A stretch of DNA of 64,000 bases from Bilabrum cf. latius (lineage: Eukaryota), in assembly GCA_965178125.1 (NCBI GenBank), contig OZ237746.1, forward strand, positions 620,001 through 684,000, given 5' to 3'. Below, piece by piece: positions 2,000 to 64,000 of this stretch. The position numbers and the translations under genes were made by a program. Below the pieces are notes generated by a model. The model did no database searches and had not been told where the DNA came from. It was given only the letters and a program-made list of their open reading frames with translations. How positions within the stretch are numbered: the first letter of the stretch is position 1; each line of letters starts with the position of its first letter.

Positions 2000-4900
2000 A
2001 TGCAATTTACAGGTCTTGACACGACGGTCTTAGATTTACTGCATGAGCCCACTCTGGCCAAGCCAGCGCTGCCTCCGTCGGACGTAGTGCGGTGCTCGAC
2101 GGTCGGAAGCCTCCGCCTACGACCCCGGCTACAAGCAAATCCCACAGGACATGAAAGCAAAATCGAGTTCTCAAAATCGTCTACAGTACACGTGGTATAG
2201 GGCTTTTTGGATTCATAGTGGGCTGATGCTCAGCGTAGCATCGCGCCGGGCGTATCCCGGGTTCTCGATGGGACGACTCGGTGGCTACCTTCCCCCGATT
2301 CGTGGCAGGCATGCGGCGGTGTCGTGCTCCGTCAAGCAATTGTGCTATCGGTGTGCCTAGATGAGCTCTCCCGCAGAGCCAGTGCGGGCCGCGCACAGGC
2401 CATGGAGGCACCTGCTCCGAAACCGCGCACGATCACGTCCACCCTGAAGCGAGCAAGCACTGGTGCTGGCAGCTCCAAACGATCGACGCACCCCGGGGAG
2501 ATTGTTGGACTGGACAGAACAGCGAGGCTGCTGGCGCGCACTGCCCGCAGCCTCTCTTCCCGCTGCAGGCTCCTGTTCTCGCAGATGAGCCTGTCTCTCG
2601 CGGCCGCCACCGTCGATCTCGCCTCGATTCGGGAATCCGCGGAGACGAGTGCGAGGCAGGCGGGAGGTCTGAAACGGCTGCTGCAGCAATCGGAGTATTC
2701 GCGGCACGCGGCCGAGCATCAGCTGTCCCAGGGAGCCAGGGACGTGGAGGAAGGCAAGGAGGACGCTGAGAAGTGGAGGCGGTTTCAGCATGTGACGAGT
2801 GCGTGGATGGAGAGGGTCCGACGGGGTGACGAGTGCCTGCAGCGGATCCAGCGGGCGTGGCGGGCGGCTGTGCTGCGGCGAAGGCTGGGCGCGCTGGCCG
2901 CGGCAGACGAGGTGATGGCCCTCCGTGTGGCGGTGGCGGCGAGGCGGGAGCGGGCTGCGTGCCGAGTCCAGCGGTTTCTCAGGCGCAGGGTCTCAGCCTG
3001 GTCTGACGCGGTACGGGGATTTCGGATCGCCGTGCGGGCACTGCAGAGGAAGAGCAGGCAGCTGGTGGCCGAGCGAGACGCGGCAGTGGCCCGGCAGCGG
3101 CTGTGGCAGGGGGCTCACCTGGAGACGCTTCGTCTGGCCAGGGCGGGGATCGACGCGTTGAGGTCACGGGCGGCGAGGCAGGACCTTGCGCTGCAGGGGG
3201 TGCAGCGGGCCATGAGGGGCGGGCTGGAGAGGCAGGCCGAGTGGGACCAGGGCTCGGTGGATGGGGAGGGGGGCGTGGACAGTCAGGGAACAAGCACGCC
3301 AAGGAGCAAGCAATCGTGGGGGACTGCCGCGTCACCGCGGTCTGGTAGCGCGGTGACACCGAGGGGAATTCCCCTGAGCCCCACAGCGGGGTCATACGCG
3401 GGGCCTGGGACACCTCGAGGCGCCAACAGCAGCCCGCGCGGTGACACAGAGGACACGGGTTCCAACTCGTTCGGTGATATTGCGGGGGATGATACATTTC
3501 CTAGCACTGGCACTGGCACTGGCACTGGCACTGGCACTGGCACTGGCACTGGCGCAGGTGAAACCAAGGGCGGCCCCAGGACTCCTTCCAGCCCCTCAAG
3601 TCAGGGAAGGAGCGCGCCGGGCAAGGGATCCAATGGACGAAGCAGGGCCAAGGGTGGCGCCAGGTCGAAGCGGAGGAGCGTGCGGGGCGGATCCACCGGC
3701 GGATTGGCGCAACAGGCCGCGGCAGTGCGTGAAGCGCAGGGCAGGGCCCAGCTGGCCGAGAAAGCCTCAGCCAGGATCCGAGCCATCAACGGGCGGCTGG
3801 CGGCCCAGGTCCGGGTGGTCAAACAGGAGCGCAGGCAGCTCTAGTCACAGGTGGATGCGGAGCTGAGAGTGTACTATGGGCGCGACGGGAGGCGCGATGG
3901 GCCCAGGGAGGCCCCTGCCCGAGCAGCGGAGGGGGGGGATCGTGGCGAGGGGGAGGGCAAGGCGGAAGGGGGCGGTGAAGCAGGAGGAGGAGGACGTGGG
4001 GCCTCGCTGGACCCCGCGGCGATCTCTGCCCGGCTGGCTGATGCGATCGCAGGGGAAGAGAAGGCGAGGCGGGCTGCATCTGCCCGCTTTGAGCAGGAGG
4101 TGCTGATGCACGATGAGGCACTCGGGGGGGCTGGGAAGGGGACCATGGGGTCGCAGAGCCTGCCGGATGGGGGTGATATGCGCGATGCCGAGCTGAAGCA
4201 GGAGCTGCATGCCGCCGTGGAGAGGGCGGCGAGGAGGGGAGACCCTCAGGATCCCACGCTGGTGCAGGCAGTGGCCCGATCGGTGGCCCGCAGAGAGGCG
4301 CTCGCTGATGACGCCCGGTCTCCTGCTGACCTGAGGACGGACGGAGGTAACAGAGGCAGGCTGATGCAGCTAAGGGCTGAGCGCAAGCTGAGAGACCTCC
4401 GGACGGGAGAGGCGGGCCAAGGCTCGGGGAGGGAACATGGACGCGGTGCCATGCCAGCGCCCCCCACGGCCGTGCCGGGGTCCGATTCATTCCTGGAAGG
4501 CGACAGCCAAAATCACCCCGAGGGGATTTCCCCTGGCTCACCCCTCGGCGGGGGCAAGCGGGGCAAGGCTAGGGCCAAGGGGGCGACCAAGTCCAAGTCA
4601 AAGACCCCACGCGGGGGATCCAAGACCCCCAGGGGCTCCAGATCACCGCGCGGCAACGCGTCGCCCAGAGGCAAGCAGCCCTTCCGGCCCAAGCCGCCCA
4701 CGAGGCCCACCGAGTTCCGGTTTAGCAGGAACAGCCCGCGGCAGCGGCGAGGCACCAAGCCAGCCGCAAGTGACAGCGAGGCTGCGGCAGCCACAAGCGG
4801 CATTTCAGAGGGTCACGGTGCAGTTCAACTAGGCGTATCAGACTCCGAGCAACTGGAGGGTTACGGTGATGACGCAGCCACTGGTGTCTCTGCGGAGGGC

Positions 4901-6451
4901 AAGGGGCGGCCCCACCGCGCAGACTCGTTCGCTGCAGCAGAGGCCCTGATGGGTCTGGACGGTGCCTCGATCGAGGGGACGGAGGCACTGGCGTTCTTGG
5001 GAGGAGTCAGGGGATCTCCCGCTCCAGGGGGACTGCCCAGGGAACAAGAAAATTCGATACCTAAGCCCAGCCTCCTGGTCAGGAAGCAGGAGACTGCCAG
5101 TAGCCCGGTCAGCGCTGATGGCGACAGGGGTGGCCCGCCTCCGCCCGTGCAAGTGCGCGGGCTCTCACCCTCCACCACACCAGCACCCACATCCACACTC
5201 ACGGCGTCACCCACGCAAGGGCGTGCAGGGCGCGGCACAGGCGCTGAGGCTGCTGGGTCCCGTCCTGGATCCAGCGCAGGGGTTGCGATTGCATCGCCGC
5301 TGGGGGGCGGTTCGGTGCGGAGACGGACGGCCAGGCTGACTCCTGGCAGTGGGGGAGGGCTGGGGGGCTGGTCGCCTGTCGCTGGCCCGCCCCGTACCCC
5401 TGTCCGGCCTGGCACCGATGGACCAGAGCAGCGCGCACTCCACGATCTTGCGGGCGTTGGTATGGGTGTGGGGGGCAGCAAGGAACACGCGAGCAGGACA
5501 CTTGGCCACAGCAATGCCGGGCTCACCAATGACGATGGCAATGCCGAGTCCCCGTCCGCTGCTCCGCCACTTGCTGCTGCACTTGGGCCTGTTGGTGCTG
5601 CGCTATAGAAACCAGCACCTGTCCGGGGCACAGACAAGGTGGCCCGAGAACAGGCCGGATCACGCGGCGGGCATGGGCCACTCGTCATGCGGCAGAGGAG
5701 CGCTTCGATGTCAGGCGCCATCAGCAGGGGCTCAGGCGGTGGGCAGATCGGAGGGATCGTGCCAGGCAAGGCCCGTGAATTCGAGTCTCTGGTGGGCCAG
5801 GGAAGGACGTACGGCCAATTAGGGGGCATGGACTAGAATCGGGGACTTGATTTGTTCCCTGGTGTGTCCTCCACCCCGTACACCGGTGGACCGCCGCTGC
5901 GAGTGACACCGCTAGGAAGCAGGACACTCCGGGGCCCATCTGAGGGACAGTCGCGTGATCAAGTACCAGTCGCCAGTCGGGATGAGGCTGCATGTGGCAG
6001 TGCTTCGTCGGCTGGGCTAGAGCCGGGCCCGGGGCCAGAGCCGACGGATGCGGATCGTGACCCGGGAGCCGCAGTCGACTCGGACAACCCGATGCTTCAG
6101 CTGGGCTACACGCATGGTCTGCACCCCGACACACTGAGGGCAAGCCAGCAGACCGGGATAGGGGAGCTGCGGCTGGGCCGGACCTCACGGGGAACCGAGC
6201 CAGTCAGGGGGCCGAACCCCGCGGTGGCGTGGGCGCATCAGCAACAGGACGGGGTTGGGAGAAGCAGCGGGCAAGGTGCGGGGCTGGGCGGGAGGCACCA
6301 CCGTGCAGTGCACCGGGTGAGGGCACGTCCAAGTTCGGCGGTCCCGCGGGGCCGAGTGGGGCTCTCCGGGGTTGTGGTGGGTGCCTCTGCCGGGCGCCAG
6401 AGGAACGCGAGGACGGGGCCGGTGGCTGATCCTGGGTTCCTCGAGGCGTGA
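2000..6451 (+). CDS. IQ-motif / coiled-coil, low-complexity protein (~1483 aa with TAG=Gln)
   Basis: Same-frame track ORFs 2000-2200, 2324-3844, 3851-5608, 5639-5836 and 5852-6451 are separated only by TAG (2198, 2216, 3842, 5606, 5834) and end at TGA. IQ-like segments: LQRIQRAWRAAVLRRRL, ACRVQRFLRRRV, VRALQRKSRQL. Confidence 0.7.
3504..3553 (+). repeat. (GGCACT)n hexamer microsatellite encoding a Thr-Gly run
   Basis: Directly visible tandem hexamer inside the CDS. Confidence 0.9.
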
Positions 6452-10762: not shown

Positions 10763-13700
10763 TTAGGTCCTAGCGGTCCTGTAGTCGCGGTAGAAGGCAA
10801 GCAGCCTCTCAGATATCTGAGGGGAAATATCACCCGCAGCAGCTTCCAAATCTGCCTGCGACACCATCACGTCAGACCGTTTGATCTCGCCGATGAACTC
10901 GCCACATTGGCGGTCCTCTGCACCCAACTCCCCCTGGCCACTATCCCCTGCAGTCACTCGCCTTCCCCTCCCCTCGATACCCCCCGCCGGCCCCTCCCTC
11001 CCCTCGATACCCCCCCCCTGCCCCTCCCTCCCCTTGATGGCCCTCCCCTGCCCCTCCCTCCCCTTGATGGCCCTCCCCAGCGCCCGCATCACGGCCCCTT
11101 TGCCCACCGCAGCACACTCGGCCCCACTGAACCCATCCGTGAGCGCCTGCAGCCGCACCCAGTCGGGCTTGCGAGCCCCGCCTGCAGTGAGCGCCTTGCC
11201 CAGCCCCGCCCGGATGATGGCCTGCCTCGCCTTGCCACTCGGCGGTCCCACCAGCACGTGCCTATCCAGCCGCCCTGGCCTCACGAGGGCATCGTCAAGA
11301 AGATCCGGCCTGTTCGTTGCAGCCACCACGCTCACTCCGCCCCTGCCACCCGCCCCGTCCATCTCCATCAGCAGCTGGTTGACCACCCTGTCTCGCACCG
11401 ATGCACCCCCCCCACCCCCTCCCCCTGACCCCCGCTTGGGGGCAAGAGCGTCCACTTCGTCCAGAAACACCACGCACGGGCTCGCCCTCCTCGCCGCGGC
11501 AAACAGCCTGGCCACCGCCTTCTCAGAGTCGCCCACGTACTTGCTCAGCAGCTCGCCGCCCTTGACCGACAGGAAGCTGGCTCCCACCCTGGTTGCAACC
11601 GCTCTGGCGAGCATGGTCTTGGAGCACCCGGGGGGCCCGTACAGCAGCACGCCCCCCGGAGGATCCACACCCATGGCCCGCAGCGCGCCAGCGTGCCTTG
11701 AGGGCCACTCCACCGCTTCCAACAGCGCCTCTTTGGCCACCCTTTGCCCGTGTACATCCTCCCACTTGGTGTCGGGGCGCAGGGCTGCCAGCTCTCTAAG
11801 CGCTGTGGGGCGCGTGCGAGCCAAGGCGACCTGCAGGCAGTGCTCAATGTCCGTGGGTCCCGGGGTAGGGGGGGCGGAGACCGGCGACTAAGAATCGAGG
11901 GAGCTACCACCTGCAGCAGGGATTGCCGAGCCGAAAGGGGACACATTGCCGCTTGATATGGCGCTCTACGCGTTGTCTTTAGTACCTATTCCGCTAGCTC
12001 CCTCGGATGATGCAGTGGTGCCAGCTGCATCCGGCGCTGATCTATGCATGGGCCGCTCGTCTGGTGCAGTAGCTGCTCTTGCGTTAGACCTGCCTCGTTG
12101 CATGCCCATCTCTTCCAGGACTCGCCTGCGCATCGACACCAGATCGCCCGGCATATACCCAGCGAGCTTCCGAGCCAGAGGTGCACTCGCAGATACACCA
12201 CCTTCTCCCTGGGATCCAATTGTTCCCTGGCCCACCTCCCGCATCATCGTCCGCACCGCCTCCTCCAGTACCTCGCCAGAAGGCGGGTCTGCCTCAATCA
12301 CGCAGTCCAGGCGACCCACCCCACGCAAGGAGGCAGGTATGCTGCTCTGGCTCGATGCAGTGGCGATCACGAGAGGCACCAGAGGTACCGGCTGGTTTTG
12401 TCGTTGAGTACCGTCGTGTGACGAGTGCGAAGGGGGCACCAGGCCAGCTAGTTCCTCCAAGCTTTTGTTTTGCCCCACGGATGCGCTGCCTTGTCGTGTG
12501 CCGGGACCCTCGGCTTCGAGCGCATCGCCCGACACCAGGTCCTGACTGTCTTGCTGGTGCAAATGCTGGTGCAAACGCTGGTGCTGGTGCTCCTCTCTAT
12601 TACGACCCACGGACAGTACGCCGTCTAAGGCACCAGTGACCGCACTGGTGACACGGCTGACTCGCGCAGCATCTGCACCCACCCCGTCCCCTGGCTCTCC
12701 CCCGCCACCGGCATCACCGCCGCCCACTGCTGCCCCCAGCAGCACATCAAGACGGTCCAGCAGCAGGACAACCGGCACACCCTAGTTGCCAGCCCGCTGG
12801 GCGCTGCTGCACGCCGCTGCAATCGCGGCTTCCGCCTATCCGCTGAATGGCAGGGCAGCCATGCCTCGGCAGTCCACGCGCCGCAGGGACACGGCGGGCG
12901 GAGCAACAGCAAGGGCGGCAGAGCCAGCGGGCCCGCGGGCACGGGAAGCGGCCGCAGCTGCCGCAAGCCGGCGAGCATGAGCAGCAGCGGCCAGTAGTGC
13001 ACTCGCCGCCTGTGCTCCCGCCTCGGGGGGACCCACCACCACTAGGCCCCTGGGAGGGGGCAACCGGGGGATCGAGGAGGAGCCGCGGCGCGCCGCTGCA
13101 TCCTCTGGGCCGGGTGCACGCGTCCCGGCTGCAACCTGCGACTCGGTTGCAGCCGCGCTGACCCATCGATCGAGAACGGCCCTACTTCCGTTCACGATGG
13201 CCTTGAGCAGGGGTCCCAGGGCCAGCACGCGCGCCTGTCTGGCACAAGACACCCGGAGCGCTTCGGCCTGCGCCTGCATACCCGCCGCCGCCTGGGGGAC
13301 CACATGGCCAGTAGAAGGCCCCAGTTTCAGGGTAACGCCGGGTTCCTTTGCCTATGTCTCTGTCTTGTCTGCGGTGCTCGCTCTCCCCGGCGGGGAAGGG
13401 GCCCGACCTTGCACTTGCGATGGCGCGATCAAGGCGAACCGAGTGCTCGCTGCAATCGCTACCGCCACGCCCCTCGGTGCCTCCACGGTTGTGACGTCCT
13501 CTTGTTTACTGGCAGTAAAATACTCAATGGAGTCTAATGTTTTGCCAGCGGCAGGGCCAGTGGCAGCTGCTGGAGGCGAAGATGACGATGGGACGAGCAC
13601 ACGGCGAATTCTGGCCACAACCGGTGCGGGGGATGCGCCGTGTCTGATCGCAGCGGGAGAGCGAGATGCTGGCACCACAAGAATAAACCCTCCCGATGCA

Positions 13701-14203
13701 ACGAATCTAGGGCAGAACAGTGGCGAAGCCTGCCCGCCGGTCCGCCAGGGACCAGTCGTGGCAGATGCAGATGCCGACCATGCGGGTGGCTCCAGCTCGA
13801 CCACGGCAGCAGGTGCATCCAATATATCGAGGGGCATAACCGCGCAGTCTGTCGGAGAATGAGCTATCGTGTCGTAAGGCAGACCATTTCCCTAAGATCT
13901 GGCGGATTTCGATACCAGTGGCTGTGCAGATGCTACCACAGCCGAAGCCGCTTCATTTCGAACCATACGCTCTCCTTGCGAGCGAGATGGCCACGCCGTG
14001 CAAGTGATTGCGCAAGGTATTCTAGTTTGGTTTACGATTAAGTTGATCAGCAATGCCACCGGTTGCCCAGCCCCGGCACGAAGACTTGCAAGTACCTTGG
14101 GATTGACCAACAGAAGACTGCCGTTGCTTACTGCATCTCGAGATACAGACGCACCTGGTGCTTGCAAAACCCCTTGCCACTACCGGCGTTCTCGCTATCG
14201 CAT
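10763..14203 (-). CDS. AFG2: AFG2/SPATA5(Drg1)-like double-ring AAA+ ATPase, ~1146 aa
   Basis: D2 has [13 protein letters not shown] (the CSKT Walker A typical of AFG2/SPATA5), VFLDEVD and ATNRPDLLDDALVRPGRLD. A degenerate D1 lies upstream. Five track ORFs share one frame, joined by TAGs at 14195, 14180, 13892, 13352, 12836, 12782, 11966 and 11888; ends at TAA 10763-10765. Confidence 0.8.
10966..11077 (-). repeat. Imperfect 27-bp tandem repeat (RAIKGREGQG / GGIEGREG) inside the AAA D2 lid region
   Basis: About four visible units of ccctccctcccc-containing sequence. Confidence 0.75.
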
Positions 14204-18088: not shown

Positions 18089-18125
<37 letters not shown>

Positions 18126-21100: not shown

Positions 21101-24100
21101 GGCGTCCTTCGCACTCATCACACTCCCAGAGGGAGACACCTGCACGGACGCTACTCCGGTGCTGCCCGGGACACGCCGCCCCGCGCCCACGCCCATGCCC
21201 ATGCCCATGCCCATGCCGCCGAGGTCTGGGCTCCCCACCAGCCCCGACGCAGCCAGGCTGCGCGCTGGAGACCCCTTCTGCTGCTTCGTCGGCTTCCTGC
21301 CCGCAGCGGCGCCCGCTCGTCCAGGCCCCCCCTGTTCCCCCACCCGCTTTCCCATGTCCCTGGACCCCTGGCCCAGCCCCTCCCCTGATCCAGAGGGCGT
21401 TGGGAAGTCGGGCGGGGCAGACGAAGACTCGGAGCGGTCTCTAGCGCGAGCCGCGGCTGCTGCTGCTGCTGCTGCAGCCGCGGAGGCCCTCGACCTCCGA
21501 CCACCCTGCCTGCGGCTGCGGCTAGGGGGTCGGCTGGGGCGGCCCCCGCCCGCTGCCGAGGCAGAGGCCGCATCATCGTCCTCCATGGCACCATCCTCGC
21601 TCCCTGCGTTCAGACCGCCGGTCTCATTGTTCCCTGACGATCGCTGCTGTGCCGCCACGGTGCCCATGGGCTGCAAGGGGGGCAGCCCAGCGGCTCCCTC
21701 CACCGCCGCAGCGCTGGCCGCGGGCCCAAGGACGTCCCCGTGGTCCCCACCGCCCCCGCTGCCACCCGCACCCCCCTCCCTCAGCCGCTGCGCCCTCCCG
21801 GCAGTCAGCACCACCACCGTCCCGCTGGCTTCGTCCTGCAGCACCCCGCCGGCGAGCCCCCTCCCCGCGCTGCTGCCCAGGTCCGCCTGTTCCCCATCGG
21901 CTCCTGACTGCGAGGCAGCCACGCTCGCGGGCGAGGAGGCGAGCTGGGGAGGTCGAGCCCTGGGCCGGCGCGCGGTGCCGCCGCCCAGGATCGCTTCCAG
22001 AGTTCCCGCCCCGGGGCCGGGTCCAAACTCGACCCCGCCGCCGCCGGTCGACGCGGCGCCGGACAGCACGGCTTCTAGAGTGCCGGCCGCACTGCGGGGC
22101 CGCCGCAGGCCGCTCGTGTCGGGCGCCCCCAGCGCTCTCGCCGCCCGCCCGATGCTCCCCGCCCGCCCCCGGCTTGTTCCCTGGTCCCCTAACCCGATCG
22201 CGGAGGCGAGTACGTCCAGCCCCGAGCGATGGCTCTGCGCCGAGTCGGGCGCCACGAGGCCGCGGGCCACGGCGGAGGGGGTCTGCTGCAGGTGGGCGAA
22301 ATTGGCCCCGATGCCCAGGCTGGCGCTGGGGTCGCGCACCGCCGACCGGGCCGCAGGCTGGGCCCCACCCCTCGTGCCGTGTGACGAGTGCCCCTCCTGC
22401 TGCTGCTGCTCCATCCTGTTTCTCCTGCTCTGAAACCTCTCCGCCCTGGTCCTAAGCATGGCGCGCTGCCTGCGGGTGCCCCCCGCCTCGGGGTCAAGCA
22501 CCATGGCCATCCCCACCCTTGATTCCGATTCCGAGTCGTCCCCGCCCCCTCCGCCGCCGCCGAGCCCCAGCGCCATGGCCAGCCCCATCCCGCCCCCCGC
22601 CGCGCTCTCCTCCCCCGGGCTCCTCTCCGACCCCCTCGTGGTGCGGCCCCCCCGCCCCCCCCCGCTCACGATGGACGCCGCGCTCTGCAAGAACCGAAAC
22701 GCGTTTGAGGCCGACCTCTGCCTCCCCCTGGAGGAGGGCGAGGACGAGGGCATCGAGGTGAGCGCCGAGGCAGCCACCGCGTGGGCGTCACCGCCGTCCT
22801 CCTCCTCCCCCTCGTCCCCCCCGCCGGCCCCGTACCCGTACCCGTCGCCACCCGCCTCCGCCGCAGCGACCACATCGCCGAGTCGCCCCAGGCCCACCTG
22901 CCCCGCATCCACACCTGCCAACGAGGTGGACGAGGCCCGGGCCCGGCCACTGCTGCGCCTCCTGCCATGCCCCGCGCCCACCGCACCCCCCTCTTCGTCC
23001 TCGTCCTCCTCTTCCCCAAACCCCCCACCGCGTCGCGCCGCCCTCCCTCTGCCCCCTCTCCTGCCCCTCGAGCGCCCCCTCATCCTCCCGATGATCGCGG
23101 CCTCGGCGTCATAGTCACCGTCCTCGTCCTCGTCCTCGTCGTCCACCATAGCGGCGCCGCGCCCCCCGCGACCACCCGAGCCTGCGGAACCGGCGCCGCG
23201 CCGACCCCTGGGGCTGCTGGCGCCGCTCCCACCCCCACCCCGCCGTCGCCTACTCCCCCGGGCAGTCCCCGAGGACGAGGAAGCAGAGGCCCGACCACCC
23301 CTTCCCCTCCGCGCGGCGCCGCCCGCTCCTGCGGAACCAGACGCCGGCACGACGAGACCCTGCACCCCCGCCGCCGAGGAAGAGGAGGACGACGTAGAGG
23401 AAGACCCGCCCCGCCCCCTGCCCCCGCCTGCGGAGGGTCTCTTGGCCGTCCCGTCGCCCACCAGGCCCTCCCTGACCATGTAGTCCAAAGCGGCGGTTTC
23501 CCTAGACTGCGCGGTATCAGTTGCCAGGATCTCTCCCCTCTTCTCCAGCGAGTCCACGGTCTGCCTCATGACCCGCTTGAGCGTGGAGTTGTACCTGTTC
23601 TTGAGCATGTTATCCGTCCTCCCCTCGATCCGCTGGGCGATGGCCGCCCATTTCGTCCCCAGCTCGATCTTGAGCCGCAGCAAGGTCTCGTCCTCCTCTG
23701 CCGAGAAGGGCGTCTTCTTGATGGAAGGGTCAAGGTGGTTGTACCACCGCTCCCTGCACTGCTTGCCCAGCCTGCCCCTGAGGTTCTATGCGATCAGGGA
23801 CCAGTTCTTGGTCCCTAGTCGCTCCACAAGGCTGATCACCAGCTCGTCCTCCTCTGCGGTCCAGGGCCCCTTCACCAGTCCTGGCTTGAGGACCTTCTGC
23901 CAGCGGTGGAGACACTGCACGTCCGTCCGACCGGGGAGGTGCTCGGCGATCGCCTTCCAGTTGCGGGCCTTGTGCTGCTCCACGGCCCGCCGGAGCTGGT
24001 CGTCCTGCGTGTGACGAGTGTGCGGGAGGGGTTCCGGAGGGCAAAGGGGATGCATCCGGTTTGTGGTGTGAGACGGCTGATGCAGTGGCCGTCGTGACAC

Positions 24101-39612: not shown

Positions 39613-39705
39613 TTTTGGCCTGCCGGTGAGTGCACTGCACTGCACTATACCCAGTAGACATCAATACATAGCATATTAAAGGATTTCACAACAAGGCCGA
39701 ATCGT

Positions 39706-45400: not shown

Positions 45401-48400
45401 CACGTTGTACGTCTCCACAATATCCTGGTCCTCGGGCCAGTCGCCCCCCTCCCACACCAGCAGCGACCGCTTGTAGATCGAGTCGATCGTCCTCTGGTAG
45501 TACAGGAACACCCCCTGCAGCGCGGTGGAGGGCGAGAGCGTCTCGCACAGTCCCCTCATGAAGTCGTGCGTGTCGGTTGTGTTGAACAGATCCGCCAGGT
45601 CCTGCTCAGAGTAGCCCTCTAGATTCCGGGACGGCTTCTCGCCAACTCGATCGAAGGCATCCGAAGCCGCGTGGGCCAGCGTCTCATCGGGCGTATCGAG
45701 AGCACCCATCCCTCCCATGCCCAGCAGGAGCCTCGCGGCCGCGCCCGTGTTGCGGCCCGCCGCGCCCCCGCCGCTCATGCGCCCGTCCCCGCGCATTCCC
45801 GTGGCAGCGGCCTGGGATACGGCGGACCCGCCGGCAAAGACCTGGAGGCACATGCTGGCCAGCTCCGCCGGCGAGAAAGCCCGCTGCATGAGGGCAACGT
45901 GCCTGGCCGGCCGGGGCAGGACGTTCTCGGCCAGCAGATCGACGGGCCTCCACTGCTCCAGCAGCGCCACGCCGTCCGGACCCACGCACACGAACCGCTG
46001 GCGGGGTACCGGCTGCGCCTGCACCCACATGGGCCGGGGGCACTTGTGTTCCCCGAGGTGGGCGTCCTCTGGGTACGCCTTCAGTTCCCTGGCCCTGCGC
46101 TTGAGCACCATCAGGTACTCGTCTAGCAGTCTCCCGGGCCTCAGCTGCGGAAAGGACTCGAGGAGAGCCTGGTCCTGCATGGACAGCATGGACTCATATG
46201 CGGCCGCGGAGGTATTGGCGGGACCCCCGCCCCTGCCGCGCCCGCGCTTCCGCCCGATCCTAGGACCCGGCAGCTGGCCCCTCCCGTCCGCAGCCACGAG
46301 CCCGGCGGCGTCCCACCCGTCGCCACCCCTTCGCCTCCCGTCCGCTTCCACGAATGCGCCGTCATCCGGCAGCCCGTCGTCCTCCTCTTCTACAGCCGCA
46401 CGGTCCCTGGCCGCGGCCTCGAGCACAACGGGGATCGCCGCGTCGGGGGCGATGGGCGCAGGCTCTGGCCCCGGGCCCACAAGCAGCGCACCAGTCGCGG
46501 AGTAGTGCATGTCGTGGTACAGCAGCGAGGGCTGCGGCTCGGCATCCATAGCGCGGATGTCCATGCCCAGCCCTGCAGCCTCCGCATCGTCGTCGTGATC
46601 CGCCCACCCGGCCCCCGCCAGTGGCAGCAGCCTCCTAGTGACCGCCTCTCTCATCGAGTTCTCGTGCCCCCGCATGAAGGCGCCGTCCTCCGTCTTTGCC
46701 TGCTTCTGGAACTGCTCGAGGGCGCGCCGCCCGCGGAGCATGGGTTCGTAGGTGATGCCCACCGTCTCGCACCTTCCTTCCTTCCTCCTCGCGAGCAGCA
46801 CCGTGCTGCCCGGTACCATGCAGCAGGCCACGACAGACTGCATCGAGTGCGCGTCTCCCTGCCTGGGCTGTGGCCCGTCCGCGTACAGAGCAGTCAGGTC
46901 AGCTTCGTCCTGCCTGCGCCCAACCATCTGCGCCTGGGCCGACGATGCCGACGAGGACGAGGACGATGCCGCAGCAGCGGCAGAAGAAGACCCGGAACCC
47001 CGGCCGTCGGTCACAGAGAGGTTGCTGGGCGGGGGCAGCCTCACGTACACAAGCTCAATGTTCTTGCCCGAACTCTGCCCGCTCTGCTCCACGTAATCAG
47101 CCGTGCGAGTGTCATCAAAAATGCTGCCGTACCCGCGCTTGGGCCGGTCGTACATGCTAAAGTACAGCCGGGCCCCGCCCTCGTCCATGGCCACCAGGTG
47201 CACCCTCTTGCTGACGTCAGGGTGCACCGGCTGCAACCTCACAAGCGGGAAGCCCAGCCCCGTGGCGCCGCCCGCACCGGCACCCAGCGAGTTGGACAAC
47301 AAGTCCATGGCAACCGCAGCAGCGCCCCTGCCCCCCATGTCCCGGCTGTGCACCTTGGCTTGTTCCCTGAGACCGGACTGGGTCAGCCTGCAGCCCACCA
47401 CGGGCAGGTCGCTGGGTCCCCCGAGCAAGTACGTGGTGATGGTGCCCGACACGCCCAGCGTATACAGGTGCGACCGGTTGTGGTCCACCACCATGTCAAC
47501 CAGCGGATCAGGGTCGAACACCCGGGCGATGTTGCGGATCACGGTGTAAGGGTTCCAGGAGAGGAGGTTCGTGTGGTTGATGGTCCTGCACCTCTTCCTC
47601 TGTCTGCCGCATGCCTCGGCTGCCAGCTCGATGGCCGCCGTGGTGGCCCTCCGGAGCTGCTGCAGGTACTGCTCGATGCCCTTGTCGCTTGATGCCGCCT
47701 CGGCGGGCACGTCGCCGTACATGAGCTCGGTGAGGCCGCCCGTGCCCGTGCCAAGGAACACTCTCCCATGCAGGTCGCCCGCGATCCGGTCCACCAGTGC
47801 CCCTTTGAGCGAGCACTTGTAGTCGCTGCCTCGGGGGATGTCCAGCACGCCGCGGGCACCATCGGGCATGCGGATGGCGCGAATGGATACGCTCGTGGTG
47901 GTGGCGATGGCCAGGACGTACTGTGACGAGTGGTGAGGGGTCAAAATGTGGGGGGTGGGGGGGAATCAATAGTGTGTGGGGGGAGGCGCGCAAGGGGTGC
48001 AGGTGCGGCAATAGGTGCACAGGTGCTTAGTGCACGGGGGGTGCAACGGGAATCGTGCGGGGAGACACGGTATCATCCCTACCACTAGTTAAGCACCCTC
48101 CCATACCAGTGATCGTCGTCATCGACTCACCCGCACGTGCCCATCTCGAAAAGCCAGGGGCTGCGGCACGCACAGCGCAACCGCTGTGATGCTGGACGCG
48201 CAATCCGGCAGACGGATGTCTACAGTGCCAGTCGTGTAGTTCCACAAGCAGAATTTATTGTCGCAGCAGACCCAAGCTCTCTGAATCTCGGGAAATGTCC
48301 CGTACCGGTCTCTGGAGCCTGTCGCTGCAACCTCGGCGGCGGCCGCGGGAATCTCGGAACGCGCAGTTACGCGAAGCTGCGAGACAAGGTAAAGTTATGT

Positions 48401-48764: not shown

Positions 48765-48890
48765 GCTGGTCGATAAACTAGGGCAAAACCTCTTTTTGTG
48801 CTCAAACCAAAATACACTCGTCACACCTACCTGAGCTTGCGCCCGAAAGACCCGCCGAGCCCTTCAGGCTGCACTGCAAGACTACCAGGC

Positions 48891-50201
48891 ATGGCCGGAC
48901 TGTCTGCTCCGGATGAGTTGTTTGAAGTAAAGGAATAGTTCTTTCTAGGGAACCACTCAGCAGCAATTAGCGCAGCAGCGTCTGTGTCTGGCCTGGACGA
49001 GGAGCAGACTGCCAAGCGCGACGCGTTCGTGTACCGGTGAGCCAGGTTCAATTGTTCGGCGCAAGCACGGCACAATATGTGTGCTATAAGTATGTCGTTT
49101 TTGGCAGTACGTTCCCGCATCGCAGGGCTTATATTGCACAGGGCAATCCGCAGGTAGTCCTCGCTGAGGTGCCGGCGAGCGAGACCAGACCTCCGTTGCG
49201 AGCGGTGCGGGCCCTCGCTGAATATACTTCAAATGAAAGCGATAGGCCTAGGATAGCAGAGGACGTAAATGGTTGGCGATCGGCGGGGTCTGGCATGGAC
49301 TCAGACGCAGTTGCAGCGATCGTGGCAGCGACCATCCTCACTTCTGAGGGCCGCACGTCCGATGCGTTCAAGGCGATTGCCAAGGAAGATACGATGGAAA
49401 AGTGAGGCTGGGCGCCGCCTCCGAGTCCAGCTTGTTCGTTTCCTGGGAAAGCTGCGATTGTGCTGTTGCGCGGCAACGTGGATCGTCCTGCTCGCCTCTC
49501 CTGACTCTCCCGAGTGCCACGATATTGCGTGCAGCTATAAGGCCAGTGCATATGCAGGACCTGAATTGTATGCACTGGTCCCATCGGTTGCGCTTGACGT
49601 CTGAAACAGCTCCTCGTGTGCCCGAGCACATACCCGTCAACCCCACTGCTGCCCATGACCAAGCTAGCCTTTCCTGACCGCCTCCCACTCGTCACATCCG
49701 TTTTGCTCGTCGTCCCGCAGGCGCGCCATGGCTGTGCAGCTGCTCCTGCGCATGGACAGGGCGGATCTCGCCCGGGCCCGGGCCGATAAGATGCTGCGAG
49801 ACGACGTGGAGGCCACTCTGGCGGTGCTCTCGGGCGCCTGGGTGTCGCTCTACGAGGGGGGGCCTAAATGTGCCGAGGCCGCCGCGGCGCTGGGGGAGCT
49901 GAAGGACCGCAGGGGAGTCAGTCCCGTGCTTAGCTCTGCGATCGGCGCTGCGATGCTCGCCGCTGGTCGGGTGGGCGATGCTGAGGCTGCTTTCCACGAG
50001 GCCGGCGGGAGGGGCCCCGCCGCGGGGGATGCTCTCGTGAACCTGGTTGCAACCTCGCACCTGCAGGGCAAGGACGAGACCCACATCGGGAGACTGGAGG
50101 CCCAGCTCAAGGCCGAGGCGGGTGAGCACCCGGCGGTCAAGCAGCTCTAGGTGGCCGAGTCCGCCATGGAGAGGGCAGCGGCGGCGGCAGAGGAGGCGTG
50201 A
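48891..50201 (+). CDS. COPE: Coatomer subunit epsilon; exons 48891-49036, 49126-49401 and 49721-50201
   Basis: DELFEVKE-x-FFLG, AFVYR|AYIAQG, AMAVQLLLRMDRADLA, DALVNL and HPAVKQL-x-VAESAMER. GT-AG introns at 49037-49125 and 49402-49720; TAGs at 48936 and 50148; ends at TGA. Confidence 0.9.
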
Positions 50202-52303: not shown

Positions 52304-52643
52304 GGCCGATGCAGCAAACGTAGTACACGTTGAATTTTAAGTCTCTTCTTGAATAATATAGGCCCGTAAGCGTTGACAGGAAGCTACCTCAAAGCGATGA
52401 CAATTTGTTGTATTTTTTCAGAATGCAACCAACGGTATTGCTGCTATTATTGCGCCCAAAGGCATCGACGTGTAGCAATACTGTACTCAAATACCGCCGA
52501 TTTTTTTTTGCCCGAAGGCAAGGAAAATGATCACAATCACACGTCATGAACCATGATCCAATTTTCGATCGGAGCAACTGCCTTTCCAAAATACTGACAA
52601 CTTGTAGAACGAAGCAAGCAACAATCAGACCCATGAGAACCCA

Positions 52644-55600: not shown

Positions 55601-56960
55601 CGGTAGTGCAGTGCATGTTCGCGACTGGGAGCCCGCCGGCCTGGCACTGGGAGTCGCGCTTGCGTCCTGCGTAAATCCCGACAGTGGGCGCCTGGCACAG
55701 CTAGATATTCACCAGTGGCGAGACACACAGCCTGTACATGCTGCTCAGCGGGTGAGGGTACGAATTGACCGTCCTAATGCCTCGCTCGAGCCAAACGGGG
55801 GCGCGAATCGTGACAGCTCCGGCCGGCTGCAGACCATTGCAGCTGTGATTGGAACGGCTGCATGCTGGGATATCGTATCTGCATGGCGGGATGCTGTGCC
55901 AGTGTTTGACGACGCGGGGCGCAGTGAGGGTGTGACGAGTGATAGGGGGCGGCAGGCGCTCCTTGCCGAAGGAGTCGCCGACGCGCTCCGGGGCTTCCTT
56001 CTATTGGCGAATAGCAAGGGCAAGGATATGGAGGATGGCTGGGACGAGGGTAAGGAAGAAGCAAAGGCCCGAGATGCAATGGATGCAGGCCTAACCATGG
56101 GCCCCCCTGCCTTGCCCCTTGATGGAAGGCAGCGTCGCATGCTGTGTAGCGCGGTGCGGTGGCTCCTTCCGGCCCTTGGCTGCAACGATAGCGACGTCAG
56201 CACCAGCAAGTCTACGTATGTCGAGCGGGAGACGGGCACGAGCGCCCACGAATATGCGTTGTTCCCGCGAACCATTCGACTGGCACTGCCACCTACCACC
56301 CAACGAATTCGACTCCGGATCATTGGATCCGGGGAACAAGAGGGCCTGATCAGGCGGGCCACCGCAGAGATGGGTCTCGGTGACGTGGTGGATTTAGCGG
56401 GCGCAAAGTATGGTGCTGACCTGGCCAAAGAGGTTGCCCAGCTCGATTTGCTGGTGCTGCCATCCGTGCGGGAAGAATCGGAAACGTTCGGGATGGTGCT
56501 TGCGGAGGCAGCGCTGGCTGGGGTGCCCCGAGTGGCGATGGGTTTGGGCGGGCCTCTGGATGCCGTGGACCATGGGACGGGAGGGGGGTTGCTCGTACCT
56601 TTCGTGTCGCCGCTGCTGCTGGCACTGCAGGTGCAGGCGGCAGCGGGTCATGGTACGCTTGACTCTGGAGCGATTCGGTCCCATGCTCTTGCAAGGGGGC
56701 TTGGCAGTCGGGACATGGGTGCTCGGTTTGCGGCATTTGTCCTTTGTCTTGCGCGATGTCCGCCCATGGGCTCCGAGGGTCGAGATGGGGTGTATGGGCT
56801 GCTTCAATTGAGGGTCGGTACTGAGGCATGGGATAGCAAGTTGAAACCCAGCGAAGCTCGGTTTTTGAGTGGCCTTGCAACGAGAGGGTGCACTTCGGCT
56901 CGTGCGATTGCCTGCGCGGGGCGTTGCGCGTGGTCGGATGTTGGTACTGAGAGCTACTGA
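52644..56960 (+). CDS. Large GT4 (GT-B fold) glycosyltransferase with a hydrophobic N-terminus, ~1438 aa
   Basis: ITVGYVGRLSPEKGILLLLEA, LRIIGSG and LDLLVLPSVREESETFGMVLAEA (EX7E). Four track ORFs share one frame, joined by TAGs at 54105, 54474, 54660, 55293 and 55476; ends at TGA. Confidence 0.75.
53658..53927 (+). repeat. 30-bp coding minisatellite, 9 units (MDVKEPGQGS x7, MDVKEPGKGS x2)
   Basis: atggatgtgaaagagcccgggcaagggtca repeated head-to-tail with no spacers. Confidence 0.95.
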
Positions 56961-57444: not shown

Positions 57445-57556
57445 CCTTCATATTTTACACGCATTGACCTGAACTTATGTATGATTAGCGTTAAGAAAGA
57501 CTAAAGCTAGCCTCAGGTAGTGCTGAAATCAGTGCAGCCACATCGCAATAGCGGCA

Positions 57557-60500: not shown

Positions 60501-63500
60501 TCGTGGGCCAGAGGATGGAGCAAAGGTAGCTTAACACGCGTCACACGGATACAGACGGTGTGGTGTACGTCTTCTTCCTGGATTGGCGCAATCGGATGGA
60601 AGGAAGGCAAGGCTTCGAATGGAGAGACTCGGGTGTGAGGGTAAGGCAGGACATTTACGGGTACGGAGGAGGGCTGGGGTACGCTGCATATAGGATCCGT
60701 CGGATGCTGGCTGCGAATGAAGACGACCAGCAGGAAGGGCAGGGGTGGAACGATGGATGGTCCCTCGAATTTGGATCGTCTGTGTCTGTGGCCATGGGCT
60801 GTGACGCGAATTCAGTCAGCCACGCAAGCTTTGGCGTGGGCAAGGTAGTGTTCTCTGTGGGCGTGCTAGGTCACAGCGATAGTCGAGGCGGGGTGTTTCG
60901 ATTTGCTGTGGACCGGAGCCCCACCTCTCCACAGGGCTCGCAGTTTCCTACCGTGGGCCACCCCTACTTCGGAACGATGCGCGTCTACTACTTTGGATCC
61001 ACCACCACCGGCATTCCGAGCGGGATGTTGAGGCGATTCCAAAACCCCGCACTGACGCTCATCAGCAATAACGATATCTTCGGGCATGGTGTTGCCAACG
61101 TGGATTTCGACGGGGACGGATGCCAGGAGGGCACCTTGTTGGGGTCGTTCCGGCACGACAGCGACGCTGGAGCTATTCTAGCCTTTGCTACTCGTGCAAA
61201 CGGCGACATAGCTCCGGGGTACAAGCTGGCTACTGGGGATGAGCTAGAGTCGTGGATATCGCAGGTCGAAGGCATTGCTGCTTCTTCTAACGCCCGCAGT
61301 GTCATTGCAGACGTGCAGCATTTCGGGATGTCCATGGCCGCGCTGGGAGACGTGGACGGTGACGGCCTCACTGACGTGCTGACCCCTTCGTATTCAGTCA
61401 AGGACAACATCGTTCCCTGGGTGGCTTCTTCCCAATCGCACTACGCTGGGCAAGGGGGGCTGTTGCTTCTGTCGTACGACAGCGGCCTGTTAATCCAACA
61501 GGCTCAGTACATCGGACCCAAAGTAGGTGGAGACTTGATGAACGGCATGTGGCCGTCGTCTTTCATCCCATACATGCGGTACGATTCATTCACGTCAATT
61601 TCGGCGGTCGATCTGGATGGCGATGGGCTGATGGAAGTGGCAGTCGGTATGGAGCGATACAACGTGCCATTTGACAACAAGAGGTCGCCGGACGAGTACG
61701 AAACAGATGTCAGTGACCGCAACTACCAAGGTGCGGTCATGATCTTTACGATGGGGAGCAGAGACAAGTGGCCAGCAGCTCGCCAGGCTGTGCAGAACAG
61801 GCTTAACTCTACTTCTGCAGACTCGATGGACTGGCCCTTGGTAGTGCCCGGTACCCTCAGGCTGATTCCTACCCCCGTCCACCTCAGGGGGCAGGGGCAT
61901 TTTGGCAAGGCTGTGGCGCTCGCAACAAGCCCGTTCGTGGATCCCAGCCTTTCGCCCACTCCCATGCTGCTGGTGGGGGGCCCCAGCCTGACGAATCATG
62001 ATCCGCAGTACGGTCAGACCGCCACCAGCGAGATCTTTGGGGCCGCGTTCGTGCTCGCACTCCCTGCCGTGTCACGTTGGCCGGATGGACTGTACAACGC
62101 GTCCGACGGACTGTACAGTTCGGCAATTTCCAATCAGGTCGGGCTGACCCTGCCAGCAGGGAGGCAGGCTGTGGATCGGCTGCAATCGCTGTCGGGAACA
62201 TCTGGGATCGTAAGGGACCCTGCAGTCATGCAGCCACTTGCCCTGCTTCAGTCGAATCACCGTGCGGATCTGACTAGCATGGTCACTGCCTCGTAGTCAC
62301 CCGGGTCGTCACACCCACAGTATTCTCTCAGGACTGCCAGGTCGGTGTTTGCTCGACCGCGCAGCAGCGGTGTTGCAGATCCGGTGGCACAGCGCTTAGC
62401 ATCTAGCAGCGAGTGCGACGGGGGCTCGTGGCAGACCTTGGCAGAACGCGACCCTACTGGCTACAACTTCTACACTGGCCTGGCCTCCGCAACCGCTCTG
62501 GCCAATGGAACTGTACTGCTGACAGGGGGTGACAAGCGTCTGGGTGGAACCAGTTATTATGGCAACCTACTTCGGAGTGACGACTACGGTAGCTCTTTCT
62601 ATGTGATGGGCGTCAACAACATTGGCGTAGATGCTGTTGACACCCACAGAAGCATCATTGCAGTGCCAGCGGAAAAAACCGAGCGCCATAATAGCTAGAA
62701 TGTAACTATGCGCAACCGTGACACAATGGCCTCGGATCAGACCGTCTTGATCCTTGGGGAGGGTACAATCCAGTCGATTGCTAAGTTCTATTCCTACATG
62801 GGGGGATTACAAGGACAATTCACGCAGACGGCAATGAATAACGTATACAAGCTTAATCATTTTGCGGTTGCCACGACGTGGCACGGTCCGGCGACGGCAC
62901 CGTCGTTATATATGATGGGTGGATAGCAGCAAGGCGCGCCTGGCGACAGAGTGTACAAGAGTACGAACGGGGGTTTCTCCTGGAGCTAGCAGCAGGCTCG
63001 GCTACCCGGCAGGTGCAGGAAGAACGGAGGAGTAGGCACCTACGGGGGGATCCCAGTAGTGACGGGGTGCCTCAACGAGTTTTCCAGCGAATACGGCGAC
63101 TCTGACTCCTCCGCCACTGCTGCCTCCTTTGATAACGGCGTGTCGTGGACGGTCACCAGCCGGACGGTACACGCGCACACGAGGAGCTACTGGCCTCCGA
63201 GGAGGGTGACACGTTTAGTGGCGTTGCCAGACGACAGCATACTCCTGTGCGGAGGGAAAGACGAAGATTCAGGAAACAGTATCGGCGGTGGCAATGGAAT
63301 CTCTGGAGAGGATCTATTCGGCGACTGCTGGCGCTCTTGGGACCACGGCTTGCACTGGGAGAGGCAGCTGGCTCCCAACGGTGGATTCGACGTGTTTCCC
63401 GGCGGCAAGCCGCTGGCTGAGCACTCCATGGTCCATTTAGGGGGCGGAAGGGTGATTGCCATCGGCGGACGCACGTCATTCACGTCCAGTATCTACATTG

Positions 63501-64000
63501 GCGTGATCGGCGCGACGTTCTGCCTTCAGAGGCCGGCTCAGTCGCACGCTCTTCCTGAAGGCAAACACGGACCCTCATCAGATTTCGATCCCTGGCCCAT
63601 GCTGTGCCCCAGGGGCGCCAAGCGAGGCACCGCGGGATGCATGCTGCCCCTGCGAGTATCTAGTCAAAGCTAGGACGATCCTGTGAAGCTGCTCATTGAG
63701 TATTCCTCCTCACAGGCCTCTTTGCTGTCACACTGGGCCATCAACGAGGGCGGCTATGTGAGAGCACTCGTCACGCATCCGGACTCGATGTCCAATGACA
63801 CTGTCGTGCAGGTATCCGTTGAGCCTGCGGATCCGCATGATGGAGGCTTCACCAGCATGAGGAATCTGCACGGGGGCCACCCCTTGCACTTGTTCAAGGA
63901 TGTGCCCGAGACGCCGTCTGTCGATGCCCTGAATGCTGGCATGCAGGTGGACGGTCTTCCGGCTGCCAGCGGCAACGTGTACGGCCCCTCGATTGCGCAG
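57557..64000 (+). CDS. Very large secreted/surface protein with FG-GAP (integrin-alpha/VCBS-like) repeats followed by BNR/Asp-box and kelch-like repeats; 3' end runs off the window
   Basis: Signal peptide MLLLVMMAPLLFAVGLS; repeated GDVDGDG..D, DFDGDG and DLDGDG motifs; RSDDYGSSF, KSTNGGFSW, SFDNGVSW and RSWDHGLHW Asp-boxes. Eight same-frame track ORFs are joined by TAGs at 57839, 59666, 59966, 60527, 62294, 62696, 62924, 62987 and 63671. Confidence 0.8.

Follow-up and report, generated by a model that had tools for sequence, protein, structure and literature searches.

An exact 12-base DNA word repeated through genes, introns and upstream DNA of the protist Bilabrum cf. latius: a putative recognition site for a DNA-binding factor

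Why should one 11-base word, TGTGACGAGTG, recur through the unrelated genes of a eukaryote? The question comes from 64 kb of Bilabrum cf. latius DNA (called the window here, meaning the whole stretch that was analysed), where the word stands in 12 exact copies, nine on the + strand and three on the - strand, at a density of about one per 5 kb. The host is a GC-rich protist, and its GT-AG introns, spliced in transcript contigs, make it a eukaryote. The genes in the window include Nup133, 3R-Myb, epsilon-COP and the proteasome subunit Rpt1. TAG is a sense codon in this organism.

An earlier note had reported 12 exact 11-mers, nine of them extending to a 12-mer, and about eight variants with one mismatch. 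All 12 coordinates and strands are reproduced, nine copies do extend by a G at position -1 to GTGTGACGAGTG, and eight variants are found. This gives 20 sites at one mismatch or fewer, where dinucleotide shuffles expect 1.05 and never exceed 4. The simple expectation of about 0.03 copies also agrees with ours, since 100 dinucleotide shuffles give 0.03 copies of the 11-mer and none of them reaches 12; under Markov models of order 1 to 5 the expectation is 0.02 to 0.15. The note had called for a codon-preserving or high-order Markov check, and run on the window the enrichment stands against both. When codons are permuted synonymously within 16 reading-frame models, keeping the protein sequence and the codon usage of each gene, the mean is 0.094 copies and the largest value is 2 (n=1000) versus the nine copies actually present in these models. 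If whole codons are permuted instead, 0.007 copies are expected. It is important to realize that the word was picked after the fact, which is a point in favor of chance. We corrected for this by scoring the best dispersed, non-periodic 11-mer in each synonymous shuffle, and in 60 shuffles it reached 4 to 6 separate locations versus 11 for the word. Two of the exact copies, at 28278 and 28398, may not be independent, as they have a stretch of 19 identical bases and the peptide GAGVTSE in common; counting them once leaves 11 independent exact copies. The enrichment in the window is extreme and robust, and it is beyond chance.

The other trivial explanation is an adapter, primer or assembly artefact, and an adapter or primer match was among the outcomes that the earlier note had said would overturn its reading. 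One fact could be held in its favor: among the printed matches listed, the exact string and its reverse complement, in 18 and 15 papers, appear only within primer-type listings. However, all six copies in the compared stretch lie inside long contigs of a DNA-type run, not at contig ends and with no differing letters. Contigs from two further studies carry five of those six, again with no differing letters, and the sixth (24010) is in an intron that is spliced out. With copies in the contigs of three studies we reject the artefact, and together with chance it is effectively refuted.

The word is sharply bounded. Over the 20 sites the information content is at background outside 12 positions, and position -1 has G 15 times, A four times and C once. 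The flanks of the 12 exact and eight variant copies show no similarity beyond the 12 bases, and no site falls in the 20 largest of at least 60 families of direct repeats (18 nt or more), so a dispersed repeat family is rejected as well. Exact copies outnumber the one-mismatch copies 12 to 8 although each exact word has 33 one-mismatch words. The spacing analysis that the earlier note had proposed finds the exact copies no more regularly placed than random (coefficient of variation 0.75, 11 intervals), which gives no hint that selection keeps the density even. The reading-frame models cover 82% of the window and hold nine of the 12 exact copies, so the spread over coding and non-coding DNA is about even.

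Eight of the exact copies lie in reading frames, all but the first of them with G at -1. Five are read in sense as V-T-S. The copy at 2791..2801 (+; 12-mer ATGTGACGAGTG) encodes H-V-T-S in frame 1829-6451 (+). Those at 28278..28288 (+) and 28398..28408 (+) both give G-V-T-S-E in frame 26719-36153 (+). The copy at 39294..39304 (+) is in a variable segment of a NOP2/Sun-type methyltransferase frame (37888-39612, +), and the one at 55931..55941 (+) gives G-V-T-S-D in a GT4 glycosyltransferase frame (52557-56960, +), about 120 residues ahead of its Pfam domain. The remaining three are antisense and give H-S-S-H: 12417..12427 (+) in the frame of an AAA-ATPase gene (10763-14242, -), where the segment falls outside the AAA domain; 22380..22390 (+) in a low-complexity part of the Myb gene frame (16778-24133, -); and 33934..33944 (-) in frame 26719-36153 (+). 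The V-T-S and H-S-S-H peptides that the earlier note had listed for these eight copies are present, provided that the frame models read through TAG. Its split into "exons, introns and a promoter" has to be revised, under the present gene models, to eight copies in frames, two in introns and two upstream of starts. Many of its exon limits had been set at TAG codons that are read as sense.

Both intron copies lie less than 25 nt from a 3' splice site and in the same orientation. The Myb gene has a confirmed GT-AG intron on the minus strand (about 24005-24207), which holds the copy at 24010..24020 (+, G at -1). Read along the gene, this copy is CACTCGTCACAC; GCAG comes next and the exon begins after it, leaving the word 4 nt from the intron 3' end. 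The other copy, at 49686..49696 (-, A at -1), lies in an intron inferred to be the second of epsilon-COP (about 49402-49720), where the gene strand has CACTCGTCACA, 24 nt ahead of the CAG that ends the intron. Finding two or more copies in 732 intron bases has a probability of 0.009, which is a post-hoc figure, and the word is absent from two other introns, the confirmed one at 40218-40338 and intron 1 of epsilon-COP. The two upstream copies are at 47922..47932 (+, C at -1), about 52 nt before the first in-frame ATG of a Nup133-like gene (-), and at 48815..48825 (-, G at -1), about 65 nt before the epsilon-COP start codon (48891, +). On their gene strands the former reads CACTCGTCACAG, preceded by a pyrimidine-rich run, and the latter CACTCGTCACAC. 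They are 893 nt apart and bracket the DNA between a divergent gene pair. Several other gene starts in the window have no copy, and with eight of 12 copies in reading frames and only two as close as about 65 nt or less to a start codon, the word is not concentrated in promoters.

The eight variants are similarly scattered. One (GGTGACGAGTG, 2825..2835, +) is 34 nt from the copy at 2791 and is read in the other stop-free frame as G-D-E-C. Two carry the same CpG to TpG change (TGTGATGAGTG) and give V-M-S in sense, at 21112..21122 (-) in the Myb gene and at 31527..31537 (+). Two more are in sense, TGTGACGAGCG at 28872..28882 (+) giving G-V-T-S-E and TGTGACGAGTC at 32133..32143 (+) giving V-T-S. 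The others are antisense: TGCGACGAGTG at 35093..35103 (-) in frame 26719-36153, and TGTGACGCGTG at 60535..60545 (-) and CGTGACGAGTG at 63765..63775 (-) in the frame of an FG-GAP gene.

Is the word simply the trace of a peptide that these proteins share? The earlier note had argued for a signal at the level of DNA instead, citing both orientations within unrelated genes, and we agree on both counts. Relative to their genes the exact copies are five sense and seven antisense, or ten and ten once the variants are added. We reject a protein-level motif because the synonymous-codon null fails to produce the word and because it occurs in two orientations, in several phases, in introns and in upstream DNA. 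The V-T-S phase is used by nine of the ten sense copies, the Cys-containing phase by one and the TGA-containing phase by none (one-sided p 0.011). These phases reflect tolerance and not coding. From codon usage, GTG ACG AGT should encode about 1.6% of the V-T-S tripeptides, yet it encodes six of the ten. The peptide H-S-S-H is present three times versus 0.07 expected. The word bends the proteins, not the proteins the word.

Outside the window the evidence is a single copy of the 10-base core in one short syntenic contig (4.3 kb) from a close relative (L003), where 0.01 copies are expected and 2 of 200 shuffles do as well. The site at 39294 is not conserved there, as unrelated sequence stands at the orthologous position. 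Across the remaining 79 eukaryotic loci (586,510 nt) the core does not occur. Further words are enriched in the window too, namely AGGGAACA and the palindromes GGTTGCAACC (6 sites) and TCCACSSGTGGA (8 sites). A palindromic site is the hallmark of a protein that reads the duplex as a dimer. AGGGAACA is sense-biased, with 15 of 19 occurrences on the sense strand and all three phases in use. One GGTTGCAACC lies in NOP2, and compared with the ortholog in the relative it shows substitutions with unchanged length, so point change or conversion, not insertion, makes these words grow.

Our tentative reading of these patterns in the sequence is that RTGTGACGAGTG is a putative recognition site for a sequence-specific factor that binds double-stranded DNA. 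A protein of this lineage would read it on the duplex. Inside and between its genes the genome would carry a small group of such exact words, 10 to 12 bases long and some of them palindromic, and this one would be the most frequent. Copies would arise anywhere the DNA tolerates them. Inside reading frames this would mean almost only the phases that give harmless peptides (V-T-S, H-S-S-H), in poorly conserved segments; inside introns it would mean the pyrimidine-rich 3' part, with the word turned so that it too is rich in pyrimidines; the remaining copies would sit just upstream of start codons. Related species would gain and lose single sites and yet retain the word. The density of about one per 5 kb would be kept by selection for some chromosome-wide task, not for the regulation of single genes, and candidate tasks are chromatin organisation, replication, recombination or the marking of DNA as "self". 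The earlier note's inference of a genome-wide protein-binding or modification site is thus supported in part, for its DNA-level character, and the roles it named (insulator, replication, chromatin or recombination mark) are candidates. Neither protein sequence nor codon usage accounts for the enrichment, and it depends on neither transcript strand nor longer repeats. The idea that copies go anywhere they are tolerated accounts only loosely for both intron copies being near a 3' splice site. Typical eukaryotic factor sites are degenerate, so the excess of exact copies over variants is better explained by an enzyme-like reader, or by a copying or drive process, than by an ordinary transcription factor.

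The main rival is molecular drive without a cellular function, in which biased repair, gene conversion or a nuclease-linked process favors the exact word and lets it pile up wherever the harm is small. Such processes exist in bacteria, where uptake bias spreads DUS and USS words and very-short-patch repair shifts word counts. Much of what we see would follow: exact copies dominate, sites are not conserved between relatives yet the core word is in both, coding and non-coding DNA are about evenly filled, and the GGTTGCAACC in NOP2 changed by substitution without a change of length. The restriction to tolerated phases and poorly conserved protein segments, with distorted peptide content, is the pattern described for USS and DUS in bacterial proteomes. 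However, no eukaryotic process known to us has the 12-base specificity needed to drive such a word, several independent drives would be needed for several enriched words of which one is sense-biased, and persistence of the word across species rests on one copy. We find this account rather unlikely. A relic of mobile elements, whether a solo terminal inverted repeat, the end of a miniature element or an excision footprint, is improbable. The reverse complement of the word starts with CAC, as do the ends of CACTA/CMC-type elements, its length is a multiple of three so that an insertion would keep the frame, and the copies at 47922 (+) and 48815 (-) form one opposite-strand pair. But this sole close pair brackets the intergenic DNA of divergent genes and not an element-like body, none of the 20 copies shares anything past 12 bases or belongs to the 20 largest families of direct repeats, Pfam scans of the window's long frames find no transposase domain, and footprints would carry variable target duplications.

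The remaining two rivals move the signal from DNA to RNA or to splicing. An element read in transcripts, by an RNA-binding protein or as a small RNA site, could appeal to the fact that nearly all copies are in transcribed DNA; spliced-transcript contigs from three runs cover five of the six copies mentioned above, the sixth being in the spliced-out intron. The four non-coding copies all share one orientation relative to their genes, such that RNA would read CACUCGUCACA, and the sense bias of AGGGAACA suggests RNA-level words do exist here. Chance alone would make all four agree in 1 of 8 cases though, and an RNA signal should keep one orientation. The mixed orientation relative to genes argues against it, and we think this quite improbable. 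More improbable again is a branch-site or pyrimidine-tract signal at the 3' ends of a subset of introns, with the in-frame copies being unrelated or lying in unrecognised introns. Its case rests on the two intron copies, 4 and 24 nt before the splice site and both reading CACTCGTCACA, on their post-hoc clustering, and on an AG within 1 nt (47922) and 10 nt (48815) of the copies upstream of starts, which could end 5'-UTR introns. Against it are the two introns that lack the word, five copies oppositely oriented inside open frames, transcript contigs that run unspliced across 28278, 28398, 33934 and 39294, and the frame at 39294, which continues to a C-terminal tail conserved in the relative.

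If the word is a recognition site, what is it most like? The earlier note's comparison with DUS- and HIP1-type words is apt for how the word behaves inside genes. The DUS of Neisseria and the USS of Pasteurellaceae are also exact, non-palindromic words of 10 to 12 bases found in both orientations, mostly inside genes, in tolerated phases and protein segments where they distort peptide content, and they are common to relatives while individual sites turn over. Unlike them, our word is in a eukaryote with spliceosomal introns and no known DNA uptake system, its density is about one per 5 kb instead of about one per kb, and it does not pair into terminator-like inverted repeats. It behaves like an uptake word but is not one, as the host is not a competent bacterium. 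Cyanobacterial HIP1 (GCGATCGC) is likewise a short exact word iterated through coding DNA far above compositional expectation, and the palindromes GGTTGCAACC and TCCACSSGTGGA match it more closely than the main word does; GTGTGACGAGTG is not its own reverse complement, is longer, is about five times rarer and has a eukaryotic host. Among eukaryotes, the sites of CTCF, REST (NRSE) and yeast general regulatory factors such as Reb1 and Abf1 resemble the word in having about 12 bases, either orientation and many copies per genome, and it contains TGACG, the bZIP half-site of CRE and of the S. pombe M26 hotspot. Those sites, however, are degenerate and cluster in non-coding DNA that is free of nucleosomes, whereas here exact copies outnumber variants and most are in reading frames. 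Miniature transposon termini and introner elements also disperse short identical sequences through protist genes and introns, but here nothing is shared past 12 bases and the one close opposite-strand pair brackets no element-like body.

A wider reading, which we consider doubtful, is that a vocabulary of exact words, 10 to 12 bases long (one dominant and non-palindromic, at least two palindromic, one sense-biased), is maintained in this lineage by a DNA-level process, either self-marking or molecular drive, in a genome that also reads TAG as an amino acid. If true, this would be the first eukaryotic counterpart of the DUS-, HIP1- and Chi-type words of bacteria. Bacterial Chi and KOPS are non-palindromic words read on DNA, and we know of no eukaryotic counterpart of such strand-polar words. 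Over all 20 sites the strands show no bias (13 + versus 7 -, p 0.26). There is a weak hint of orientation domains, since the best split, at 32.5 kb, leaves 10 + and 1 - on the left and 3 + and 6 - on the right, a division equalled in 14 of 300 permutations.

The 12-base word RTGTGACGAGTG is over-represented under every null model we applied. Its 11-mer, TGTGACGAGTG, occurs 12 times in the 64-kb window, nine times on the plus strand and three on the minus, exactly where the earlier note had placed it (2791, 12417, 22380, 24010, 28278, 28398, 33934, 39294, 47922, 48815, 49686 and 55931), and nine of the 12 copies extend to GTGTGACGAGTG. The expectation is 0.03 copies under dinucleotide shuffling, where a count of 12 is never reached in 100 shuffles, and no more than 0.15 under Markov models of order 5 or lower. 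If one mismatch is tolerated, the count rises to 20 sites, where 1.05 would be expected. Among the top-ranked k-mers of the window this word is the only one that is not low-complexity. The earlier note had conceded that the word was picked after the fact and had named a codon-preserving null as one check. The enrichment survives it: permuting synonymous codons within genes predicts 0.094 copies against nine observed in the gene models, one of which, 47922, actually lies upstream of the first ATG. When the choice of word is itself allowed for, the best dispersed 11-mer in each of 60 synonymous shuffles has 4 to 6 locations, whereas this word has 11.

The flanking sequences of the copies are unrelated to one another, and across the 20 sites the information content is at background outside the 12 positions, with position -1 alone constrained (G in 15, A in 4, C in 1). 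No copy falls within the 20 largest direct-repeat families of the window. Together these boundaries, the unrelated flanks and the absence from those families mean that RTGTGACGAGTG stands alone. The copies are spaced no more regularly than chance would have it (coefficient of variation 0.75), and their orientation shifts weakly near 32.5 kb, from ten plus and one minus to three plus and six minus, a split that 14 of 300 permutations equal.

TAG is a sense codon in this window of Bilabrum cf. latius, and the gene models used to place the copies read through it. Adjoining frames in the same phase are separated by TAG stops exclusively. Reading through TAG opens frames of 3144, 2451, 2158, 1540, 1467 and 1159 residues; reading through TGA gives 1906 residues at the longest, though TGA is 1.8 times commoner than TAG in the window. 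The 14 frame models hold 66 TAGs in phase and no TGA or TAA, while off phase there are 105-118 TAG and 269-278 TGA; the zero counts follow from the way the frames were constructed, but the frame lengths do not. Genes terminate in TGA or TAA. A simple codon-score gene finder, with six frames as its training set, picked out only those genes whose third positions are GC-rich; the TAG-read-through frames took its place.

What settles the sense reading is the conserved context of TAG in three genes. The Myb gene has a TAG at 23786-23788 on the minus strand, inside repeat R2 and opposite K in a gap-free alignment to human c-Myb, and this TAG is retained in the spliced transcript contig. The epsilon-COP gene has one at 48936-48938 on the plus strand, inside a conserved N-terminal block and within the stretch matched by Pfam; it lies opposite A in three solved coatomer chains, so the residue opposite TAG differs by gene. 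The NOP2/Sun frame carries TAGs between its catalytic motifs, at 38026, 38458, 38800 and 39493 on the plus strand, and runs past the late TAG to the tail GVGPL(Y/F)TAV(L/I)RR. That tail is kept in L003, a metagenome contig of a close relative, where five TAGs stand in the same frame (L003:1-1041) but at different positions; the terminator is TGA in both. The locus L001, at 75% GC, has all frames too open for the reading of TAG to be judged. The literature records we retrieved hold no report of a TAG-sense code in such organisms, although supplements and wider papers may hold one, and those retrieved on UAG reassignment in stramenopiles or on nuclear codes with in-frame UAG hold nothing that fits. 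Bilabrum cf. latius must be annotated with a changed genetic code, and most gene models of the window change with it.

The window is eukaryotic, with a GC content of about 63%. Its Pfam-recognised genes include Nup133, a three-repeat Myb, proteasome Rpt1, epsilon-COP, Trm8, a NOP2/Sun methyltransferase, a DHHC palmitoyltransferase, GT4 and GT61 glycosyltransferases and FG-GAP proteins. Neither the Nup133-like frame nor the GT61 frame returned a match in protein searches, and no Rfam families or tRNA genes were found in the window. The best named match of Rpt1, a protein too conserved to name the organism by, is a labyrinthulomycete at 82% identity, which is weak evidence for placement; the best unnamed matches reach 87-88%. 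Trm8 matches in a protein atlas carry no useful taxonomy, and viral contigs searched with Rpt1 gave one distant AAA match only. Two minus-strand GT-AG introns, at about 24005-24207 and 40218-40338, are spliced in contigs of three public runs and unspliced in a fourth, DNA-type run. None of the listed runs is recorded as RNA, yet three contain spliced contigs. The earlier note had also allowed for an adapter or assembly artefact. That explanation is removed, since the same contigs from public runs cover copies of the word with zero differing letters. Contig ends near some copies (28506, 33732 and 39512) had raised the idea of a gene-boundary signal; it was dropped when the frame 26719-36153 proved continuous, and the breaks look like assembly breaks at repeats.

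Eight exact copies lie within reading frames, five sense and three antisense. All five sense copies take the phase T/GTG/ACG/AGT/G, which gives V-T-S, and all three antisense copies give H-S-S-H, as the earlier note had described. With the one-mismatch variants included, nine of ten sense copies take the V-T-S phase, one the Cys-containing phase and none the TGA-containing phase (one-sided p 0.011). All copies fall outside recognised domains, in low-complexity or lineage-specific segments. V-T-S is found 10 times (4.66 expected), six of them spelled GTG ACG AGT, a share that codon usage would put at about 1.6%; H-S-S-H is found three times (0.07 expected). The influence runs from DNA to protein. 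These peptide excesses and the synonymous-codon null bear out the view, already put forward in the earlier note, that this is a DNA-level signal and not a protein motif.

Four exact copies are non-coding. Copy 24010 precedes the 3' end of the confirmed Myb intron by 4 nt, and copy 49686 precedes that of the second epsilon-COP intron by 24 nt; the latter intron is predicted, as three exon pieces together cover the Pfam coatomer profile (2-43, 44-132 and 134-273). Both intronic copies hug the 3' splice site. Two further copies bracket the spacer of about 1 kb between the divergent Nup133-like and epsilon-COP genes, lying about 52 nt and about 65 nt upstream of the respective ATGs. Read on the gene strand, all four non-coding copies give CACTCGTCACA.

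The word has company, with CAGGGAACA, GGTTGCAACC and TCCACSSGTGGA among the other enriched words. The window holds 27 11-mers that are dispersed over at least four locations; in 60 shuffles the number ranges from 1 to 15. The word AGGGAACA has 19 copies against 2.06 expected (3285, 4430, 5039, 5853, 9695, 12221, 18443, 19822, 20284, 21628, 22175, 28686, 34986, 38402, 43755, 47361, 53483, 53584 and 53617); it is often lengthened to CCAGGGAACAAG, and the longer form CAGGGAACAA has 8 copies against 0.15 expected. It looks like a transcript-level signal, since 15 of the 19 copies are on the sense strand and the sense copies are spread equally over all three phases, five in each. The palindrome GGTTGCAACC occurs at 11591, 17310, 26248, 36829, 38628 and 50045, all six inside genes; five copies extend to CGGTTGCAACC or GGTTGCAACCG, and four sites encode V-A-T with the rare codon GTT. 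Its NOP2 copy is not conserved in L003, from which it differs by substitutions with the length unchanged. The near-palindrome TCCACSSGTGGA has 8 sites. Palindromic words sit within genes, conserved segments included. The near-palindrome TCCACCCGTGGA lies at 26058, 30121, 54323 and 55186, and the related TCCACCGGTGG(A) at 249, 20156, 32188 and 39899. GGCCAGTGCAG, CCTGCCGCGCCC and CCGGTTCCGCA are likewise dispersed and enriched, at 4 to 5 sites each.

Scanning metagenome contigs with a relative of Rpt1 recovered 80 loci (590,804 nt), which contain no copy of TGTGACGAGTG. L003 (4,294 nt; L003:1-4294) is the syntenic orthologue of window 38332-42916 and keeps its gene order: NOP2, a minus-strand gene, Rpt1 and the end of Nup133. 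The two Rpt1 genes share 95.7% protein identity and 79% DNA identity. The place in L003 that matches copy 39294 has unrelated sequence. L003 does have one copy of the 10-base core GTGACGAGTG, against 0.01 expected (a copy arises in 2 of 200 shuffles), at a position where the window lacks it; the core is absent from the other 79 loci (586,510 nt). This single copy is a hint, and it suggests that the word may be common to the lineage while its sites turn over. With up to three mismatches L003 has 4 matches against 4.22 expected, so degenerate copies are not in excess there. Of the 30 loci of at least 8 kb, which served as a control, none has a complex dispersed 11-mer of this kind; they show nothing beyond CG-rich low-complexity words and local tandem repeats. 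L003 offers a ready comparison species for both the words and the genetic code.

Chance and artefact are excluded as general explanations, and so are a repeat family, a peptide motif, a splice signal and any signal with one RNA orientation only. That leaves a word read on duplex DNA. We tentatively favour a sequence-specific binding protein as the reader, because the word has sharp boundaries, shows no preference for orientation and keeps company with palindromic words. A drive process, which we consider rather unlikely, fits several of the features almost as well: exact copies exceed degenerate ones, the spread is even over coding and non-coding DNA, and the sites turn over. We also see a low but real chance that the word gives a first indication of such a system of words in eukaryotes, one without a described counterpart. 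If the enrichment proves genome-wide, it would point to a sequence-specific reader or to a repair bias with 12-base specificity, and a single word would then be a simple pull-down handle for its reader.

In bacteria, exact words repeated throughout coding DNA are a hallmark of genome biology, with roles in uptake, recombination and chromosome segregation. To our knowledge such words have not been described for a eukaryotic nuclear genome. The likeness to bacterial DUS/HIP1-type words drawn in the earlier note holds for behaviour; it does not extend to membership, and the word belongs to no such family. The literature records retrieved for the string and its reverse complement are only primer listings and papers on unrelated subjects, and those retrieved for over-represented 12-mers or the concept are promoter-motif papers only, with nothing that fits.

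Three of the TAG-read-through frames are giant: 26719-36153 on the plus strand (3144 residues), 16778-24133 on the minus strand (2451) and 57527-64000 on the plus strand (more than 2158). Low-complexity segments abound in them. The first closes with a B56-like region (PP2A regulatory subunit), and the Myb domain stands at the start of the second. A tandem repeat at 53596-53985, ten copies of a 30-nt unit, encodes MDVKEPGQGS repeats in the GT4 gene frame, and arrays of 9-, 12- and 24-nt units lie at 14481-14800 and 15532-15756 in the unannotated stretch 14.4-15.8 kb. Over the whole window the observed/expected ratio is 0.84 for CpG and 1.21 for TpG+CpA, and among the eight one-mismatch copies of the word, two have the CpG changed to TpG; the CpG ratio and these variants may hint at cytosine methylation.
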